IMG/VR virus record: IMGVR_UViG_2667527792_000003
Span: 1 to 6,269 of that record
Strand: one strand, 5' to 3'
Source of the DNA: a virus
Taxonomy: Duplodnaviria > Heunggongvirae > Uroviricota > Caudoviricetes
DNA: 6,269 nt
Part shown: positions 1 through 6,269 of the stretch, one piece after another
How the letters are laid out: every line of letters begins with the position of its first letter
Numbering within the stretch: position 1 is the first letter of the stretch
Made by a program: the position numbers and the translations under genes
The notes under the pieces: model-generated
Told to the model about the DNA's origin: nothing
The model's input: only the letters and a program-made list of their open reading frames with translations
The model's database searches: none

Positions 1-837
1 AGGGTTTGCGACGTTCATGCGCGCACCACCTTCAACCAGTGCAGCGAAGTCCACCGCACCGTTTTCCATCGGCAACTGTTCGCTGGCAGCCTTGATGGCA
101 TCCTGCATTTCATAAAAACGTGCAGTGCGGTTGCCATTATCGTCACGCAGACCATTGACCTGCTTTGCCACACCTTTCATGGCATCTTCCATGCTGGTAT
201 AGCTTTTTACTGCCGCCATCACTGGCGCACCCATTGCCAGCCCTGCAGCCGTGGTGGTGGCTCCGGCACCTGCAATACGATCACGCACCTCCAGCGAACG
301 GGCATAACTGGCACGCGCTGCATTCATCCTGCGCTGAGCTTCCCCCAGTCGCTTCAGCCGCGCCTCCTGTTTCGAAAGTTCCTGGTTATAACGTGATGTT
401 TCACGGGCTAAACGGGCAGTTGCTCCCGCATCGTCTTTCGCAGAAATTCCCGCCCGGTACAGTTCAGCACGCACAAGCGCCGTCTGCTGCTGCAGCTTTT
501 TCTGGCGTTCTTCCAGGCGCTGAACAGCCAGCCGTTGACGGCCCAGAGCAACAACCTGACGTTGCGAAGGCGGCCCCATCGCTCCCAGTTCCTGACTGAG
601 CAAATTTGCACGCTGGCGGGCATAGTTCAGCCTGTCGCCTAATTTCTGATTTTCTGCCTGCAGCTTTCGGAAGCTGTCCAGACTGCTCCCGGCCTGATCA
701 AGCTGCTTTATTGCATCGCGGGATTTTTTGACAGCAGCAGCCAGTTCTCTTGAACTGGCCTGCGCAGATCGAAATGGGCGGGTGAGCTTGTCAACCGCAT
801 TAAGAATGACCTGCAGACGCAGGTTGTTATCACTCAT
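1..837 (-). CDS. T: Phage tail tape measure protein (P2 gpT-like), N-terminal 279 codons; gene continues past window start
   Basis: ATG at 837-835 (minus) preceded by GGGG about 8 nt upstream. I translated the frame by hand from 837 to 1 and found no stops (MSDNNLRLQVILNAVDKLTRPFRSAQASSRELAAAVKKSRDAIKQLDQAGS...GAVDFAALVEGGARMNVANP). The Q/R/A/L-rich, coiled-coil-like composition is typical of tape measure proteins. It sits immediately downstream of E/E' with the E' stop overlapping its start, as in the P2 FI-FII-E-E'-T order. Not in the ORF track because it runs off the window. Confidence 0.8.
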   Translation of the reverse strand, partial: MSDNNLRLQVILNAVDKLTRPFRSAQASSRELAAAVKKSRDAIKQLDQAGSSLDSFRKLQAENQKLGDRLNYARQRANLLSQELGAMGPPSQRQVVALGRQRLAVQRLEERQKKLQQQTALVRAELYRAGISAKDDAGATARLARETSRYNQELSKQEARLKRLGEAQRRMNAARASYARSLEVRDRIAGAGATTTAAGLAMGAPVMAAVKSYTSMEDAMKGVAKQVNGLRDDNGNRTARFYEMQDAIKAASEQLPMENGAVDFAALVEGGARMNVANP

Positions 838-1266
838 CGTTGGCCCCGCTTCTCTGAATCGCTTTATACCGCCATTCCAGCACTTCGGTCAGCGGCATAA
901 CGTCAGTAACGGATGGCGGCCAGTGAAAAATGGTGGCGATATCTGCCACCAGATCGTCAACCGTCAGGCTGTCGGTAAACCGGCAAGCACCGACTTCTTC
1001 AACAAAAAAGTGACAACCTCAACCGACATGGCAGTGAGATCTGCCGGGTCCATCTCTGCAATTTCCTGTGCAGTCAGTGCCGGACTGGAGATGCGGGGGA
1101 TCACGGTCATCATCGCGTTTACATCCATATCCATAATGGCCTGCAGGCGTGTACCGCGTAGCGCACCGGACTGCGGTTTACGCAGCACAATTTCGGTGAT
1201 TTCTGTTTTACCGCGCTTGATGGGGGTATCCAGTTGAATGGTCTTTTCAGTCTGCTTATCGCTCAT
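830..1266 (-). CDS. Tail assembly chaperone E+E' fusion, made by programmed -1 ribosomal frameshift at 1003-1009; about 142 aa
   Basis: Slippery heptamer T TTT TTG on the minus strand (plus 1003-1009, CAAAAAA) in X XXY YYZ phase with the E frame. I translated the -1 frame by hand: FFVEEVGACRFTDSLTVDDLVADIATIFHWPPSVTDVMPLTEVLEWRYKAIQRSGANDE, open for 56 codons to a TGA at 832-830 that overlaps the T start codon. The combined length of about 142 aa is the length I recall for P2 E+E'. Confidence 0.7.
964..1266 (-). CDS. E: Tail assembly chaperone gpE (lambda G analogue), 100 aa, zero-frame product
   Basis: ORF track 964..1266 minus; ATG at 1266-1264; AGGA about 8 nt upstream; positioned between the tail tube gene and the tape measure gene; contains the slippery heptamer near its 3' end. 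Confidence 0.8.
   Translation of the reverse strand: MSDKQTEKTIQLDTPIKRGKTEITEIVLRKPQSGALRGTRLQAIMDMDVNAMMTVIPRISSPALTAQEIAEMDPADLTAMSVEVVTFLLKKSVLAGLPTA
1003..1009 (-). other. Programmed -1 frameshift slippery site (TTTTTTG)
   Basis: Heptamer read directly from the sequence; the zero frame reads ACT TTT TTG and the -1 frame reads TTT TTT GTT. Confidence 0.7.
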
Positions 1267-1291
1267 TTTGCTGTCCTGTCAATTGGGTTCT

Positions 1292-1309
1292 GGCGCGGTA
1301 TCCCGCGCC
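1292..1309 (-). other. GC-rich stem-loop (GGCGCGG-TATC-CCGCGCC) in the FII-E intergenic spacer
   Basis: Perfect 7-bp inverted repeat with a 4-nt loop, about 12 nt downstream of the FII stop and upstream of the E ribosome-binding site. No U-tract follows on the transcribed (minus) strand, so it is not a canonical intrinsic terminator. Confidence 0.45.
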
Positions 1310-1320
1310 GTTCAGATATA

Positions 1321-1836
1321 TCAGAGGCCGAGGGCGTTGCGGTGCGCTTCCATCAGGTCCACACCGTCCACAATTTCCACCATGTTGATAAGGTCCACTT
1401 CATAGAGCACCTCACCATTGATGGTCAGCTTCGCGTAGCTGTTGGTACTGGTCACTTTGGTGGTGTTGCTTTCGCCCGTCTTCCACTCGCCGGAATCCAC
1501 TTCTTTGTGACGTCCACGCACGACAAGCTCCACGGCCTGCACTTCCCCGGTATCGTCACGCTGAATAGAGCCGGTAAAGCGCAGCTGGATGCCATCCACC
1601 GTGGCTTTACCCATCTGTTTAAACAGCAGCAATTCAGTACCACCAATGGAAAATTCTGTGTCCAGCGCACTGTCATCAAGCCCCAGATCCACATCCACCG
1701 CACCCGGCATTCCGCCGCCGCGATACTTCTCATATTTGCGGGTAAATTTCGGCAGCGTCAGCGACTCAACGATCCCCTGCCAGTTGTTCCCGTCGTTAAA
1801 CAGGTTCAGGTGTTTTAATTTGCGTGGTAATGCCAT
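1321..1836 (-). CDS. FII: Phage major tail tube protein (P2 FII-like), 171 aa
   Basis: ORF track 1321..1836 minus; protein begins MALPRKLKHLNLF..., as the P2 tail tube protein does; GGGGA ribosome-binding site 4 nt upstream of the ATG; 9-bp spacer to the FI stop, consistent with translational coupling. Confidence 0.9.
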   Translation of the reverse strand: MALPRKLKHLNLFNDGNNWQGIVESLTLPKFTRKYEKYRGGGMPGAVDVDLGLDDSALDTEFSIGGTELLLFKQMGKATVDGIQLRFTGSIQRDDTGEVQAVELVVRGRHKEVDSGEWKTGESNTTKVTSTNSYAKLTINGEVLYEVDLINMVEIVDGVDLMEAHRNALGL

Positions 1837-1845
1837 GTTGTCCCC

Positions 1846-3018
1846 TTACGCGCTGACCTGGCTGGCGAAATTCACCAGGTACTGATCGGTGATGCGCTGA
1901 CGCAGCATCAGGTTTTCAAGTGGCGGCACTGGCGTGTAGTCGTAGTCGATGGTGAGTTTTCCGGCTTTCAGCGTGTCTTTGTCGTTCACCGACTCATCCA
2001 GCCAGCAATCACCACCAATGAGATAGCCCTGACTGACCAGGCTGCGCATTTTGGCGCGGATACCTTCGATAATGTCGCGGGCCAGCGACGGGTTAAGCGG
2101 TTTATCCACCGCCCACATGTGTGCTTCTGCCATCGTGTCCATCAGCACCTGCGCCGTGCGGGTGTAGTTTTCGAAGGCAAAGAGCGGGTCATCACTCAGG
2201 CAGCGGGAACCCCAGAAGCGGAAACCGTCTTTACGCACAAGCGTGGTGACGTCGTTCTGGTTCAGCAGACCTGCATCGGTTGCCGGGTCCTGCAGATCCC
2301 AGAACACATCTGCAGAAATTCCGGTGACACCGTTCACGCCCACGTTGGACAGGCTTTTGTGCCATCCGGTCTGCTCGTCAATTTTGGCGCGCAGACCAAG
2401 CGCACGGGCGGTGGCATATGCCGTTGCTTCGGCATTCAGCACCGTGTCCCAGCCAGTAAAGTCAGGCCAGATCAGCATCCCTTCGCGCTGGCTGAAGTTT
2501 TCGCGGTAAGTGATCGCCTCCTGCACTGTCTTGCAGCCATACGCTGACAGGTAAGCAAATCCACGCAGGCTTTGCGCCACGCTCAGCAACTCAGTAGCTA
2601 CCGCCTTGGTGTCGTGGCCTGGCACGCCGAGAATGCGCGGTTTAACGCCGAGCTGTGACTGGGCAGATAACAGGGCTTTCATACCTGTTTTTTTACCTTC
2701 AGCAGTCACTGCGCCGATGATATTGGTCGTGGTTTCGTCTTCCGTTTCACCCTGCGGCACACGCACAACAATGGTCACGGGTTTTGCCTGGTCAGCGATG
2801 GCATCCAGCGAACGGGCCAGAGTACCTGACTCACCCGCTTTACCGCTGGCAGTCAGCACATCAGTGATCAGCACGGGTTTATTAAGAGGAAACATTTTTG
2901 CATCGGCATCATCGCCCGTGCAGACCATACCCACGATGGCGGTGCTCACCGTGGTAATAGATCGGGTGCCTTCGTTGACTTCAACAACGCGCACCCCGTG
3001 GTGGTAATCCTGAGCCAT
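1846..3018 (-). CDS. FI: Phage contractile tail sheath protein (P2 FI-like), 390 aa
   Basis: ORF track 1846..3018 minus; translation carries motifs I recognise from the P2 sheath family (…[10 protein letters not shown]…FWDLQ…DDPLF…[10 protein letters not shown]…[14 protein letters not shown]…); strong AGGAGG ribosome-binding site 9 nt upstream of the ATG. Confidence 0.92.
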
Positions 3019-3039
3019 AGTGGCGAACCTCCTGATTGG

Positions 3040-3120
3040 ATTAGGCTTCGCCCTATGTTGAAGTGATTGTGCCTGACAAACAGCTAAGCGCAGTTGTGTC
3101 GTTATTCACACAAAATAACG
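3040..3120 (-). promoter_or_regulatory. Candidate P2-type late promoter (PF-like) for the FI-FII-E-T operon, with a TGT-N12-ACA activator dyad at 3095-3112
   Basis: 142-bp non-coding gap between the invertase stop and the FI start. It contains TGTgtcgttattcacACA (3095-3112), matching the TGT-N12-ACA dyad bound by Ogr/Delta-type zinc-finger activators at P2/P4 late promoters, centred about 85 bp upstream of the FI ATG. The dyad is embedded in a longer inverted repeat, CGTTATT-N7-AATAACG (3100-3120). I could not pick out a convincing -10 hexamer by eye. Confidence 0.35.
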
Positions 3121-3160
3121 GTATTTGTCTGCTTGCAGGGATAATCAACATAATGCTGAT

Positions 3161-3727
3161 TCAGGGGGATTCATTGATCTTATTTGCCGGAAATTTTCTA
3201 TAAATGGTAGAAACGCCTACATCAAAAATCAGTGCAATACGCTGTCTTGATTCTCCGGCCTCGAGTAAACGCCCAATCTGTGCCCACTGTTCGGTGGTCA
3301 ACTTAGGACGGCGTCCACCTACTCTGCCTTTGGCACGAGCTGCAGCCAGCCCTGCCCTGGTACGTTCAACTATCAGTTCGCGTTCCATTTCAGCCAGGGC
3401 ACCCATGACATGAAAAAAGAAACGACCCATTGGGGTACTGGTATCAATACTGTCAGTCAGGCTTCTGAAATTCACACCACGCTGGCGCAACTCTTCTATC
3501 AGCGTAACAAGATGCCGCATACTGCGCCCCAACCTGTCCAGCTTCCAGACAACCAGCGTGTCTCCTGCCGATAGTGTCCTGAGTAGTTTTTTCAGCCCCG
3601 GTCTGTCGGACTTAGTGCCACTGATTTTGTCCTCAAAAATCTGCTCACATCCCGCGCAGTTCAGTGCATTACGTTGCAAATCGGTGTTCTGGTCATTTGT
3701 TGACACGCGTACATAGCCAATAAGCAT
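3161..3727 (-). CDS. pin: Serine-recombinase DNA invertase (Pin/Gin/Hin/Cin family), 188 aa
   Basis: ORF track 3161..3733 minus. The protein has the resolvase/invertase catalytic N-terminus (MLIGYVRVSTNDQNTDLQRNAL, with the catalytic Ser in RVS) and a C-terminal helix-turn-helix. The true start is probably the second ATG at 3727, which has an AGGGGG ribosome-binding site with 6-nt spacing; the first ATG at 3733 abuts it. By recollection it is closest to e14 Pin and Mu Gin. Confidence 0.9.
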   Translation of the reverse strand: MLIGYVRVSTNDQNTDLQRNALNCAGCEQIFEDKISGTKSDRPGLKKLLRTLSAGDTLVVWKLDRLGRSMRHLVTLIEELRQRGVNFRSLTDSIDTSTPMGRFFFHVMGALAEMERELIVERTRAGLAAARAKGRVGGRRPKLTTEQWAQIGRLLEAGESRQRIALIFDVGVSTIYRKFPANKINESP

Positions 3728-3754
3728 GATCATCCCCCTGAATAAAAACCGGAG

Positions 3755-3979
3755 ATGATGCCAGTTAGCTGTTACCTCTGCATTTTCTTAAACGTTGGTT
3801 TAGGAGAAGGCTCTGCATTACCGGTTGGGGTGCCTGTTCCGTGGCCTTCAGCCACTCCGCCAACAGGCTGGCTGAAATGCAATGGTGCGGCTTTTTCTGC
3901 TGAAGAATACCCGGAACTGGCAAAGGCTTACCCGACCAATAAATTGCCTGATTTACGTGGTCACCTGCATTCTGGTTAA
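3755..3979 (+). CDS. Tail-fibre C-terminal variable-domain cassette, silent orientation, fragment; family homology covers only about 3809-3961
   Basis: Translation ...PVGVPVPWPSATPPTGWLKCNGAAFSAEEYPELAKAYPTNKLPDLRG is the conserved start of tail-fibre variable C-termini (Mu S/S', P1 S, e14 Stf, lambda Stf families). It starts at the crossover site and reads away from the invertase, as a silent cassette does. Homology ends abruptly after LPDLRG at about 3961; the ORF's last 6 codons and stop come from the adjoining dcuS fragment. Confidence 0.75.
   Translation: MMPVSCYLCIFLNVGLGEGSALPVGVPVPWPSATPPTGWLKCNGAAFSAEEYPELAKAYPTNKLPDLRGHLHSG
3783..3808. other. Inversion crossover site (gix/cix/pix/hix-like 26-bp imperfect palindrome)
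   Basis: TTTTCTTAAACG-TT-GGTTTAGGAGAA: two 12-bp half-sites, 9 of 12 positions symmetric, around a 2-bp core. It matches the AAACC-NN-GGTTT-type core shared by the Din-family crossover sites, and lies exactly where the tail-fibre variable domain begins, 56 bp from the invertase start. Confidence 0.6.
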
Positions 3980-4205
3980 GGTACTGAAAAAAATCCTTTT
4001 CGGCCTGGAACCCTACGAAATCTCCACGCTGTTTGAGCAACGCCAGGCCATGTTGCAGTCTATCAAAGAAGGCGTCGTTGCCGTGGACGATCGCGGCGAG
4101 GTCACGCTGATCAACGATGCCGCACAAGAATTGCTGAATTACCGTAAGTCGCAGGACGATGAGAAACTGTCGACGCTAAGCCACTCATGGTCACAGGTGG
4201 TAGAC
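3962..4205 (+). pseudogene. dcuS: Internal fragment of the C4-dicarboxylate sensor histidine kinase gene dcuS (about 80 codons, no start or stop of its own)
   Basis: Translation TCILVKVLKKILFGLEPYEISTLFEQRQAMLQSIKEGVVAVDDRGEVTLINDAAQELLNYRKSQDDEKLSTLSHSWSQVVD matches, from memory, the segment after the second transmembrane helix and into the cytoplasmic PAS domain of E. coli DcuS. Homology starts and stops mid-codon-run with no flanking intergenic sequence. Confidence 0.7.
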
Positions 4206-4453
4206 ATCGCGCCAATCAGCGCATCCAGCAGAATATCGCCGGTCAGCGAGGCAAAGATCACCTGAACGCCGTTTGCCTGGGTGATCGGCGTTACGGCCTG
4301 CACAATCAACTCCAGCGCCAGCAAAATCAGCCCAAATATGGTCAACGCCCACTGCGCCGACGCCATGGTCTGCATCTCTAACTGCGACAAAATCACCCCG
4401 GGGATGCTGATGGCTTCCCTGCGCCTGAATATTCCGGTGATCTTTGTTTCCGG
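4206..4453 (-). pseudogene. 5' leader plus first 57 codons of an unidentified inner-membrane protein gene (fragment)
   Basis: Minus-strand translation [57 protein letters not shown], from ATG at 4375-4373, is hydrophobic and transmembrane-like. About 78 bp of upstream sequence is included. The frame is cut at about 4206 by the dcuS fragment. I do not recognise the gene. Confidence 0.4.
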
Positions 4454-4717
4454 CCCTGCACCTTTAGCGACCACTTTCGGTGCGCTCATTTTGTTTTCGT
4501 CATACTGCAACGCTACCGAATAGTGGGTCGGGTTATTGACAATGACATCCGCTTTCGGCACATCGGCCATCATCCGACGCCGTGCGGCAGCTCGCTGCAT
4601 CTGACGGATCCGTCCTTTAACATGGGGGTCGCCTTCGCTTTGTTTGAACTCATCACGAATATCCTGCCGCGACATTCGCAGCTTTTTCAGGTGGCTGAAG
4701 ATTTGGAAAAATACCTG
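4454..4717 (-). pseudogene. flhB: Internal fragment of the flagellar export-apparatus gene flhB (about 88 codons spanning the NPTH autocleavage motif)
   Basis: Minus-strand translation [87 protein letters not shown] matches the FlhB/YscU-family linker and cytoplasmic domain, including the conserved NPTH site. There is no native start or stop. The ORF-track start at 4720 is a GTG created by the junction. Confidence 0.8.
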
Positions 4718-6269
4718 CACCTATTGTTCCGTAGGCTGTGGGCTGTTGATGTACAGCCTCGGTGACGGAGCAAAAAACGCCAAAGCATCTATCTTCCATA
4801 TCGAAGGCGATCCGGATCACCCGGTCAACCGCGGTGCACTTTGTCCGAAAGGCGCTGGCCTGGTGGATTTCATCCACTCCGAAAGCCGTCTGAAGTTTCC
4901 GGAATACCGTGCGCCAGGTTCTGATAAATGGCAGCAAATCAGTTGGGAAGAGGCGTTTGATCGCATCGCCAAACTGATGAAAGAAGACCGCGATGCTAAC
5001 TACATTGCGCAAAACGCCGAAGGCGTGACTGTTAACCGCTGGCTCTCCACCGGGATGCTGTGTGCTTCCGCGTCGAGTAACGAAACCGGCTATTTAACGC
5101 AAAAATTCTCCCGCGCGCTGGGTATGCTCGCGGTCGACAACCAGGCGCGTGTCTGACACGGACCAACGGTAGCAAGTCTTGCTCCAACATTTGGTCGCGG
5201 TGCGATGACCAACCACTGGGTCGACATCAAGAACGCCAACCTCGTCGTGGTGATGGGCGGTAACGCCGCTGAAGCTCACCCGGTCGGGTTCCGCTGGGCG
5301 ATGGAAGCCAAAATTCACAACGGCGCGAAGCTGATTGTGATCGATCCTCGCTTTACGCGTACGGCGGCGGTAGCTGACTACTATGCCCCTATTCGTTCCG
5401 GTACTGACATTGCTTTCCTGTCAGGCGTATTGCTGTACCTGCTGAACAATGAAAAATTCAACCGCGAATACACCGAAGCCTATACCAACGCCAGCCTGAT
5501 AGTGCGTGAGGATTACGGCTTTGAAGATGGCCTGTTCACCGGCTACGACGCGGAAAAACGCAAGTACGATAAATCCTCCTGGACTTATGAACTGGACGAA
5601 AACGGCTTCGCCAAACGCGATACCACGCTGCAACATCCGCGCTGCGTGTGGAACTTGCTGAAACAGCACGTTTCCCGCTACACGCCAGATGTGGTTGAAA
5701 ACATCTGTGGTACGCCAAAAGACGCGTTCCTGAAAGTCTGCGAATACATCGCAGAAACCAGTGCTCACGATAAAACTGCCTCGTTCCTGTATGCCCTCGG
5801 CTGGACGCAACACTCCGTTGGTGCGCAAAACATTCGTACGATGGCGATGATCCAGCTGCTGCTCGGCAATATGGGGATGGCCGGCGGCGGCGTTAACGCC
5901 CTGCGCGGTCACTCCAATATTCAGGGGCTGACGGACCTGGGGCTACTGTCGCAGAGTCTGCCAGGTTACATGACGCTGCCAAGCGAGAAGCAGACCGATC
6001 TGCAAACCTACCTTACCGCCAACACGCCAAAACCGCTGCTGGAAGGCCAGGTAAACTACTGGGGCAACTACCCGAAATTCTTCGTCTCTATGATGAAGGC
6101 CTTCTTTGGTGATAAAGCGACGGCGGAAAATAGCTGGGGCTTTGACTGGTTGCCGAAGTGGGATAAAGGCTACGACGTCCTGCAGTACTTCGAGATGATG
6201 AAAGAGGGCAAGGTCAATGGCTATATCTGCCAGGGCTTTAACCCTGTTGCCTCATTCCCGAACAAAAAC
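4718..6269 (+). CDS. fdoG: Formate dehydrogenase alpha (major, selenocysteine-containing molybdopterin) subunit, FdoG/FdnG family; 5'-truncated and running past the window end
   Basis: Translation starts at the N-terminal 4Fe-4S cysteine motif (NTCTYCSVGCG) and continues ...LAVDNQARV-U-HGPTVASLAPTFGRGAMTNHWVD...GNMGMAGGGVNALRGHSNIQGL...GFNPVASFPNKN, in frame to the last base. The twin-arginine signal peptide and native start are absent from the window. I favour fdoG over fdnG from memory of the two paralogues, but they cannot be separated without an alignment. Confidence 0.85.
5154..5196 (+). other. Selenocysteine UGA codon (5154-5156) with a candidate SECIS stem-loop immediately downstream
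   Basis: In-frame TGA at the conserved ...ARV-U-HGPT... position of formate dehydrogenase alpha subunits. Directly 3' there is dyad symmetry: GACCAA (5161-5166) pairs with TTGGTC (5191-5196), enclosing an inner GCAAG/CTTGC pairing. This is the position where bacterial SECIS hairpins sit. Confidence 0.7.

Follow-up and report, generated by a model that had tools for sequence, protein, structure and literature searches.

The 6,269-nt stretch of DNA analysed here (the window) was found to carry the invertase-proximal end of an invertible tail-fibre segment of the Mu G/P1 C/e14 P type in a P2-like prophage of Escherichia coli, the truncation of this segment most probably being an artefact of a mis-joined contig. 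A probability of about 0.93 is assigned to this reading. The window corresponds to the whole of the 6,269-bp contig CDRT01000912.1, reversed, which comes from a draft E. coli assembly of at least 912 contigs (GCA_001373215.1). When the window was compared with the complete genomes of E. coli (5,426 in number), positions 1–3961 proved to share 99.4–99.8% identity with a P2-like prophage of many strains. The best prophage match was to the F374 prophage (NZ_OY754371, locus L001), and intact loci were also available from Escherichia phage 500465-1 (NC_049342, locus L002) and from strain OkiPb01678 (locus L007).

Invertase gene, crossover site and tail module

The first half of the window (positions 1–3018, minus strand) is occupied by a tail module. 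It contains the tail sheath gene FI (1846–3018), the tail tube gene FII (1321–1836), the tail assembly gene E (964–1266), the gene for E' (GpE'; 830–949) and an N-terminal portion of T, which encodes the tape measure (1–837). The assignments were made from RefSeq equivalents in the F374 prophage and from Pfam matches to Phage_sheath, Phage_tube and Phage_TAC_7. The resulting order of FI, FII, E/E' with a TTTTTTG heptamer, and T is that of P2-like phages (Peduoviridae). This slippery heptamer was located at 1003–1009 on the minus strand, near the 3' end of E and upstream of the overlapping E' ORF, and together with the E/E' layout it matches the classical P2 arrangement for a programmed −1 frameshift yielding E and E+E'. 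A dyad of the form TGT-N12-ACA (TGTGTCGTTATTCACACA) was also identified at 3095–3112, within the gap of 142 bp that separates the sheath start from the stop codon of the invertase gene, and approximately 85 bp upstream of the ATG of the sheath gene. Its position would suit an Ogr-dependent element of the late promoter that serves the F operon, but about 1.8 such dyads are expected by chance in the window, and it is given here as a lead only.

Beyond this gap lies a gene for a serine DNA invertase of the Gin/Cin/Pin/Hin family (3161–3727, minus strand), encoding 188 aa when the RefSeq-equivalent start is used (WP_000905010.1). The ORF as such spans 3161–3733, and use of the ATG at 3733, which is in frame, would lengthen the protein by two codons. 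The protein possesses the features of a small serine recombinase, namely an N-terminal Resolvase domain (PF00239, E 2e-53) with a nucleophilic serine at position 9/10 and a C-terminal HTH_7 domain (PF02796, 1e-15). The catalytic residue is Ser9, within the conserved motif YVRVSTNDQ, and residues 1–184 were aligned with the Gin structures 3UJ3 and 4M6F (E 3e-93). Amino acid identity is 100% with the invertase of phage 500465-1, 86% with that of Fels-2, ~79% with Cin and ~75% with Gin. The exact protein sequence has been recorded on at least 1000 contigs, and its RefSeq name in NZ_OY754371 is simply "recombinase family protein".

The crossover site, 26 bp in length and similar to gix and cix, was identified at 3783–3808 (TTTTCTTAAACG-TT-GGTTTAGGAGAA). 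It consists of two 12-bp imperfect inverted half-sites flanking a 2-bp core, TT at 3795–3796 (AA on the opposite strand), and it lies upstream of the invertase, at 69 bp from the start of the gene. The site occurs once in the window and was not found in shuffled sequence (0 copies). It aligned column for column with gixL and gixR of Mu and with cixL and cixR of P1 in an alignment (A3) for which these four sites were the comparison rows; the row for e14 did not contain a pix site and was disregarded. At the core position the gix rows have TC/GA, in contrast to the AA/TT observed here.

In a sigma-70 scan of the window, neither the invertase nor the tail-fibre cassette on the other side of the site was preceded by a convincing promoter. 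At 3747–3766 (minus strand), in the interval that separates the invertase start from the crossover site, a weak hairpin resembling a terminator was noted, with TTTATT after it. It could shield the invertase gene from read-through of the late operon that emerges from the invertible segment; the terminator-like sites returned by the scan, this hairpin included, were no more numerous than expected by chance.

The sequence-only reading had proposed a Pin/Gin-type invertase on the minus strand that faces away from a crossover site of 26 bp, where a silent cassette for the C-terminus of the tail fibre starts and is read in the opposite direction, and had likened this layout, beside a P2-like tail operon, to that of Mu G, P1 C and e14 P. 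These assignments and their coordinates were confirmed, in agreement with the Pfam matches, the match to the Gin structures (E 3e-93) and the alignment of the site, unique in the window, with gix and cix.

It had further been suggested that a Fis-dependent recombinational enhancer might be recognized in the 5' coding region of the invertase. The P1 record places the enhancer of Cin-mediated inversion at nt 19–90 of cin, and the first 150 nt of the invertase gene align without gaps with gin, cin and pinE. The putative enhancer is placed by homology to the Cin enhancer at 3638–3709 (minus strand; invertase coding nt 19–90), where DNA identity is 78% with cin, 74% with gin and 88% with pinE, compared with 65–74% in the rest of the gene. 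Two 15-bp stretches, GTGTCAACAAATGAC (3692–3706) and GCGCGGGATGTGAGC (3643–3657), have the G...C ends that are typical of Fis cores and are candidates for such cores. The proximal one is centred ~96 bp from the crossover centre, a spacing that matches the distance of ~100 bp reported to separate hixL from the enhancer in the Hin system (PMC3798978). A homologue of the annotated Cin enhancer is present at the expected distance. Of the third codon positions, 26% were invariant in the enhancer stretch against 16% (p=0.22, not a significant excess). Since the same stretch also codes for the conserved catalytic N-terminus and the p-value is 0.22, a recombinational enhancer within the 5' coding region is considered probable by homology, short of demonstrated.

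Chimeric joins after position 3961

In every E. coli genome listed, the prophage match stops at exactly 3961, which agrees with the earlier placing of a cut in the cassette at about this position. The first non-native junction (3961/3962) joins the prophage to dcuS with 0 bp shared. The remainder of the window is made up of unrelated fragments, four of which were recognized from matches to E. coli genomes as pieces of dcuS (3962–4204, plus strand), yjbB (~4204–4335, minus strand), ilvD (4336–4454, plus strand) and flhB (~4453–4711, minus strand), followed by a 100% identical piece of fdnG (~4710–6269, plus strand). Base-by-base comparison with the native context of each piece indicated that the five junctions are blunt or share 1–2 bases. 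No junction was spanned by any of the 5,426 complete E. coli genomes, and a 32-nt sequence across 3961/3962 gave no match in the GTDB-representative genomes or the JGI metagenomes. A distance of ~1.4 Mb separates fdnG from the prophage in strain 503440. A chimeric ORF of 193 aa had an exact-protein match on one contig only, CDRT01000912.1 itself, the chimeric ORFs as a group being recorded from that contig alone, and an exact protein look-up of the 73-aa chimeric ORF that contains the start of the cassette returned no match.

A short motif recurs at these joins. The hexamer CCTGCA follows three of the five junctions within 1–4 nt (at 3964, 4455 and 4714), and two of these three share CCTGCACCT; the dcuS piece starts with CACCTG and ends with ...CAGGTGGTAGA. 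The recurrence has a probability of ~2e-5 by Monte Carlo simulation, a value calculated post hoc, and may reflect a sequence-biased library or assembly artefact. Inspection of the junctions by eye gave no convincing restriction-site or adapter source for the motif.

It could be argued that a real rearrangement broke the prophage at 3961, so that the invertase was orphaned beside one lone site and the switch was locked, given that the sequence stands as deposited and that the non-random occurrence of CCTGCA at junctions could reflect a sequence-directed process. Such an event is very unlikely, however, as it would have required five successive joins with 0–2 bp overlap, involving interior pieces (119–262 bp) of conserved and distant genes on alternating strands. 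These fragment sizes are within the range of short reads or library inserts and the source is a draft of at least 912 contigs; furthermore, the junctions are found in none of 5,426 complete genomes, and neither of two large contig collections contains the one at 3961/3962. A more specific form of this proposal, in which five joins made in vivo, with cutting preferred just upstream of CCTGCA, truly orphaned the invertase and left it one crossover site, is given a slighter chance still. On account of the five-gene patchwork, the overlaps of 0–2 bp and the absence of the joins from complete genomes, the missing half of the segment most likely reflects an artefact of the assembly or the library and not a locked switch.

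The chimeric nature of the contig after 3961 also explains why no second crossover site was found anywhere in the 6,269-nt window. The sequence-only reading was correct that the second site, the assembly genes and the constant part of the fibre gene are missing from the window, the DNA after 3961 consisting of unrelated fragments. Its further, conditional point, that the switch would be locked if the sequence were genuine, found no support: what follows 3961 is a chromosomal patchwork in a draft contig, and the truncation therefore says nothing of the biology of the strain.

Silent cassette and orientations of the segment in intact loci

An inverted partner of the crossover site was observed within the tail fibre gene H, 1.6–1.8 kb away, in every intact relative examined, as the sequence-only reading had anticipated for related genomes. 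In the F374 prophage the invertase is followed by a 165-aa cassette (plus strand), a 200-aa Tfa (plus strand), a 147-aa Tfa (minus strand) and a 467-aa H (minus strand). Pfam domains were identified in each of these, namely Collar in the cassette, Caudo_TAP in both Tfa proteins and Phage_tail_fib at the N-terminus of H. The inverted sites of this prophage are at 12783–12809 and at 14613–14639, the latter inside H, with 1803 nt between the arms. For the segment of the window, the site carried by H is expected to read TTCTCCCAAACCAAGGTATGTGAGAA. Phage 500465-1 and strain OkiPb01678 share this gene layout. Their partner sites are at 7614–7640 and 5748–5773, respectively, the latter located by pattern search at ~1.6 kb from the first site, and the core is AA in the partner sites of all three loci. 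The native loci thus have the organization of the Mu G type, with opposed fibre cassettes, each with a Tfa gene, and the constant N-terminus of H outside the segment.

Two further features of these loci were noted. The locus of strain OkiPb01678 is 100% identical to window positions 3632–3961, and the second Tfa gene of its invertible segment, which is only ~1.6 kb long, has shrunk to a hypothetical ORF of 198 nt (5234–5431), so that one orientation may lack an intact chaperone. In the F374 locus, a gene with a reverse-transcriptase domain and a small hypothetical gene occur at 3695–4610. They are at the end of the prophage nearest ssrA, past its outermost phage gene, ogr, and look like cargo of a retron or defence kind at a locus that is variable in P2.

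The two natural isoforms provide direct evidence for inversion. When positions 12740–14680 (plus strand) of the F374 locus were aligned with the reverse complement of positions 5741–7681 of phage 500465-1, the 1.83-kb segment of the phage was found to be the reverse complement of that of the prophage with one mismatch. In both sites the isoform identity stops at the TT/AA pair in the centre, and a break at the 2-bp core is the signature of serine-invertase exchange. The gene sizes are swapped accordingly (396+444 / 603+1509 nt in 500465-1; 498+603 / 444+1404 nt in the F374 prophage). Both orientations are also common among the 5,426 complete E. coli genomes when a coverage of at least 80% is required, with the invertase-site-cassette junction occurring in 924 (a count that includes e14-like loci at ~90% identity) and the junction of the H constant region, site and cassette in 439. 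Partial genome matches start or stop at window positions ~3790–3810, within the crossover site. Judged on these natural isoforms from other strains, the segment inverts with exchange at the 2-bp core. Phase-variable inversion has been shown by paired-end sequencing in P2-like prophages of EPEC, and inversion of e14 has been observed by paired-end sequencing with PCR confirmation (PMC4272514).

The window retains the first 55 codons of one promoterless tail-fibre C-terminal cassette (3797–3961, plus strand), out of the 152–164 codons of the full-length cassette in intact relatives. The frame from 3797 begins GLGEGSALPVGVPVPWPSATPPTGWLKCNG... (longer reading GLGEGSALPVGVPVPWPSATPPTGWLKCNGAAFSAEEYPELAKAYPTNKLPDLRG), and the native sequence after 3961, as in strain OkiPb01678, is ...GAGTTTATTCGTGG. 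With the segment oriented as in the window, it is this cassette, from 3797 on, that is silent. An apparent ORF of ~73–74 aa spans 3755–3979, and its last five codons and stop come from dcuS, out of frame. The counterpart of this ORF in the F374 prophage is a 165-aa "phage tail protein" CDS on the plus strand which starts at window-equivalent position 3758 and has the Collar domain, without the N-terminal Phage_tail_fib domain of H. In phage 500465-1, H is a continuous ORF of 502 aa in which the window cassette is fused in frame to the 350-aa constant region (...AGLLTYL-GLGEGSALPVG...). Since H of the flipped isoform is one continuous ORF that includes the cassette, the window cassette is an alternative C-terminus of H rather than a stand-alone gene.

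The ORF at 3755/3758, with an ATG and an open frame, is annotated as a CDS in RefSeq and in GenBank, which would favour a small "phage tail protein" gene in its own right. Next to no probability, however, is left to this reading by the missing Phage_tail_fib domain, by the absence of a promoter-like site upstream, by the first 13 codons, whose place outside the invertible segment is taken in the same frame by the 350-aa constant region of H after the flip, and by a layout matching that of Mu S'/Sv' and P1 Sv', annotated in those records as expressed only after inversion. A complete stand-alone fibre gene with its own constant region, the case in which the sequence-only reading would have failed, is ruled out by the same in-frame fusion.

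Relation to known switches and proposed mechanism

The closest known systems are those of phage 500465-1 (Peduoviridae, Wadgaonvirus) and of its equivalents among the prophages of many E. coli genomes, such as F374 and OkiPb01678. Phage 500465-1 is 99.8% identical to the window over positions 3000–3809 and has the same tail module, 26-bp sites and cassette. It differs in that its segment is in the opposite orientation, with the window cassette fused to H, whereas the window ends its native match at 3961. In the Mu G/Gin system the order is likewise the same. The invertase is beside the segment and reads away from a site ~67–69 bp upstream of its start, two opposed pairs of cassette and assembly gene are found inside the segment, and the other site is inside the fibre gene. 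The invertase of Mu shares ~75% identity with that of the window, and the site is gix-like and the enhancer stretch conserved. However, the G segment is ~3 kb compared with 1.6–1.8 kb here, and it is carried by Mu rather than by a P2-like phage.

The P1 C/Cin system is similar in its invertase (~79% identity), in the gap-free alignment of the enhancer and in its cix-like sites; unlike here, cixL is found at the 3' end of the cin gene, and the segment measures 4.2 kb. The stfE-pinE arrangement of the e14 P/PinE system of E. coli K-12 is ~84% identical at the DNA level to window positions 3266–3961, although e14 is a defective lambdoid element, unlike the P2-like carrier of this segment. Fels-2 of Salmonella is itself P2-like and has an 86% identical invertase adjoining a gpH-like gene, but its cassettes differ. 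Several P2-like phages of Klebsiella pneumoniae (KP12, Kp4845-2 and others) were also found to have an invertase with ~98% amino acid identity and an invertase-to-site region with 96.7–98% DNA identity. The matches to these phages stop at the crossover site, and the backbone of the switch is therefore common across genera, with the cassettes being different or flipped.

From these likenesses a mechanism can be proposed. Dimers of the invertase would bind the two inverted 26-bp sites, one upstream of the invertase gene and the other inside H, and the enhancer in the 5' coding region of the invertase, presumably bound by Fis, would assemble the synaptic complex (invertasome). Ser9 would then cut the two sites at the AA/TT pair in their centre, and a half-tetramer would turn by 180 degrees before the DNA is religated, leaving the 1.6–1.8-kb segment flipped. 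The flip would exchange which C-terminal receptor-binding cassette, with its own Tfa chaperone gene, is joined to the constant N-terminus of H, and this exchange may result in an alternating host range. We infer Fis dependence, the cleavage chemistry and the effect on host range from the behaviour of the family.

The inversion system itself is already known, being represented by 500465-1, Cartapus, pro483, Fels-2 and many prophages, and nothing new is described in this respect. The importance of the observation lies mostly in annotation hygiene. A small "phage tail protein" CDS annotated by RefSeq beside an invertase of this kind is a silent cassette and not a stand-alone gene, and switches in draft contigs that appear to be "locked" or truncated should be compared with complete genomes before any biology is inferred from them. 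For the organism and its phages, this is a textbook host-range switch, widespread in P2-like prophages of E. coli, Klebsiella and Salmonella.
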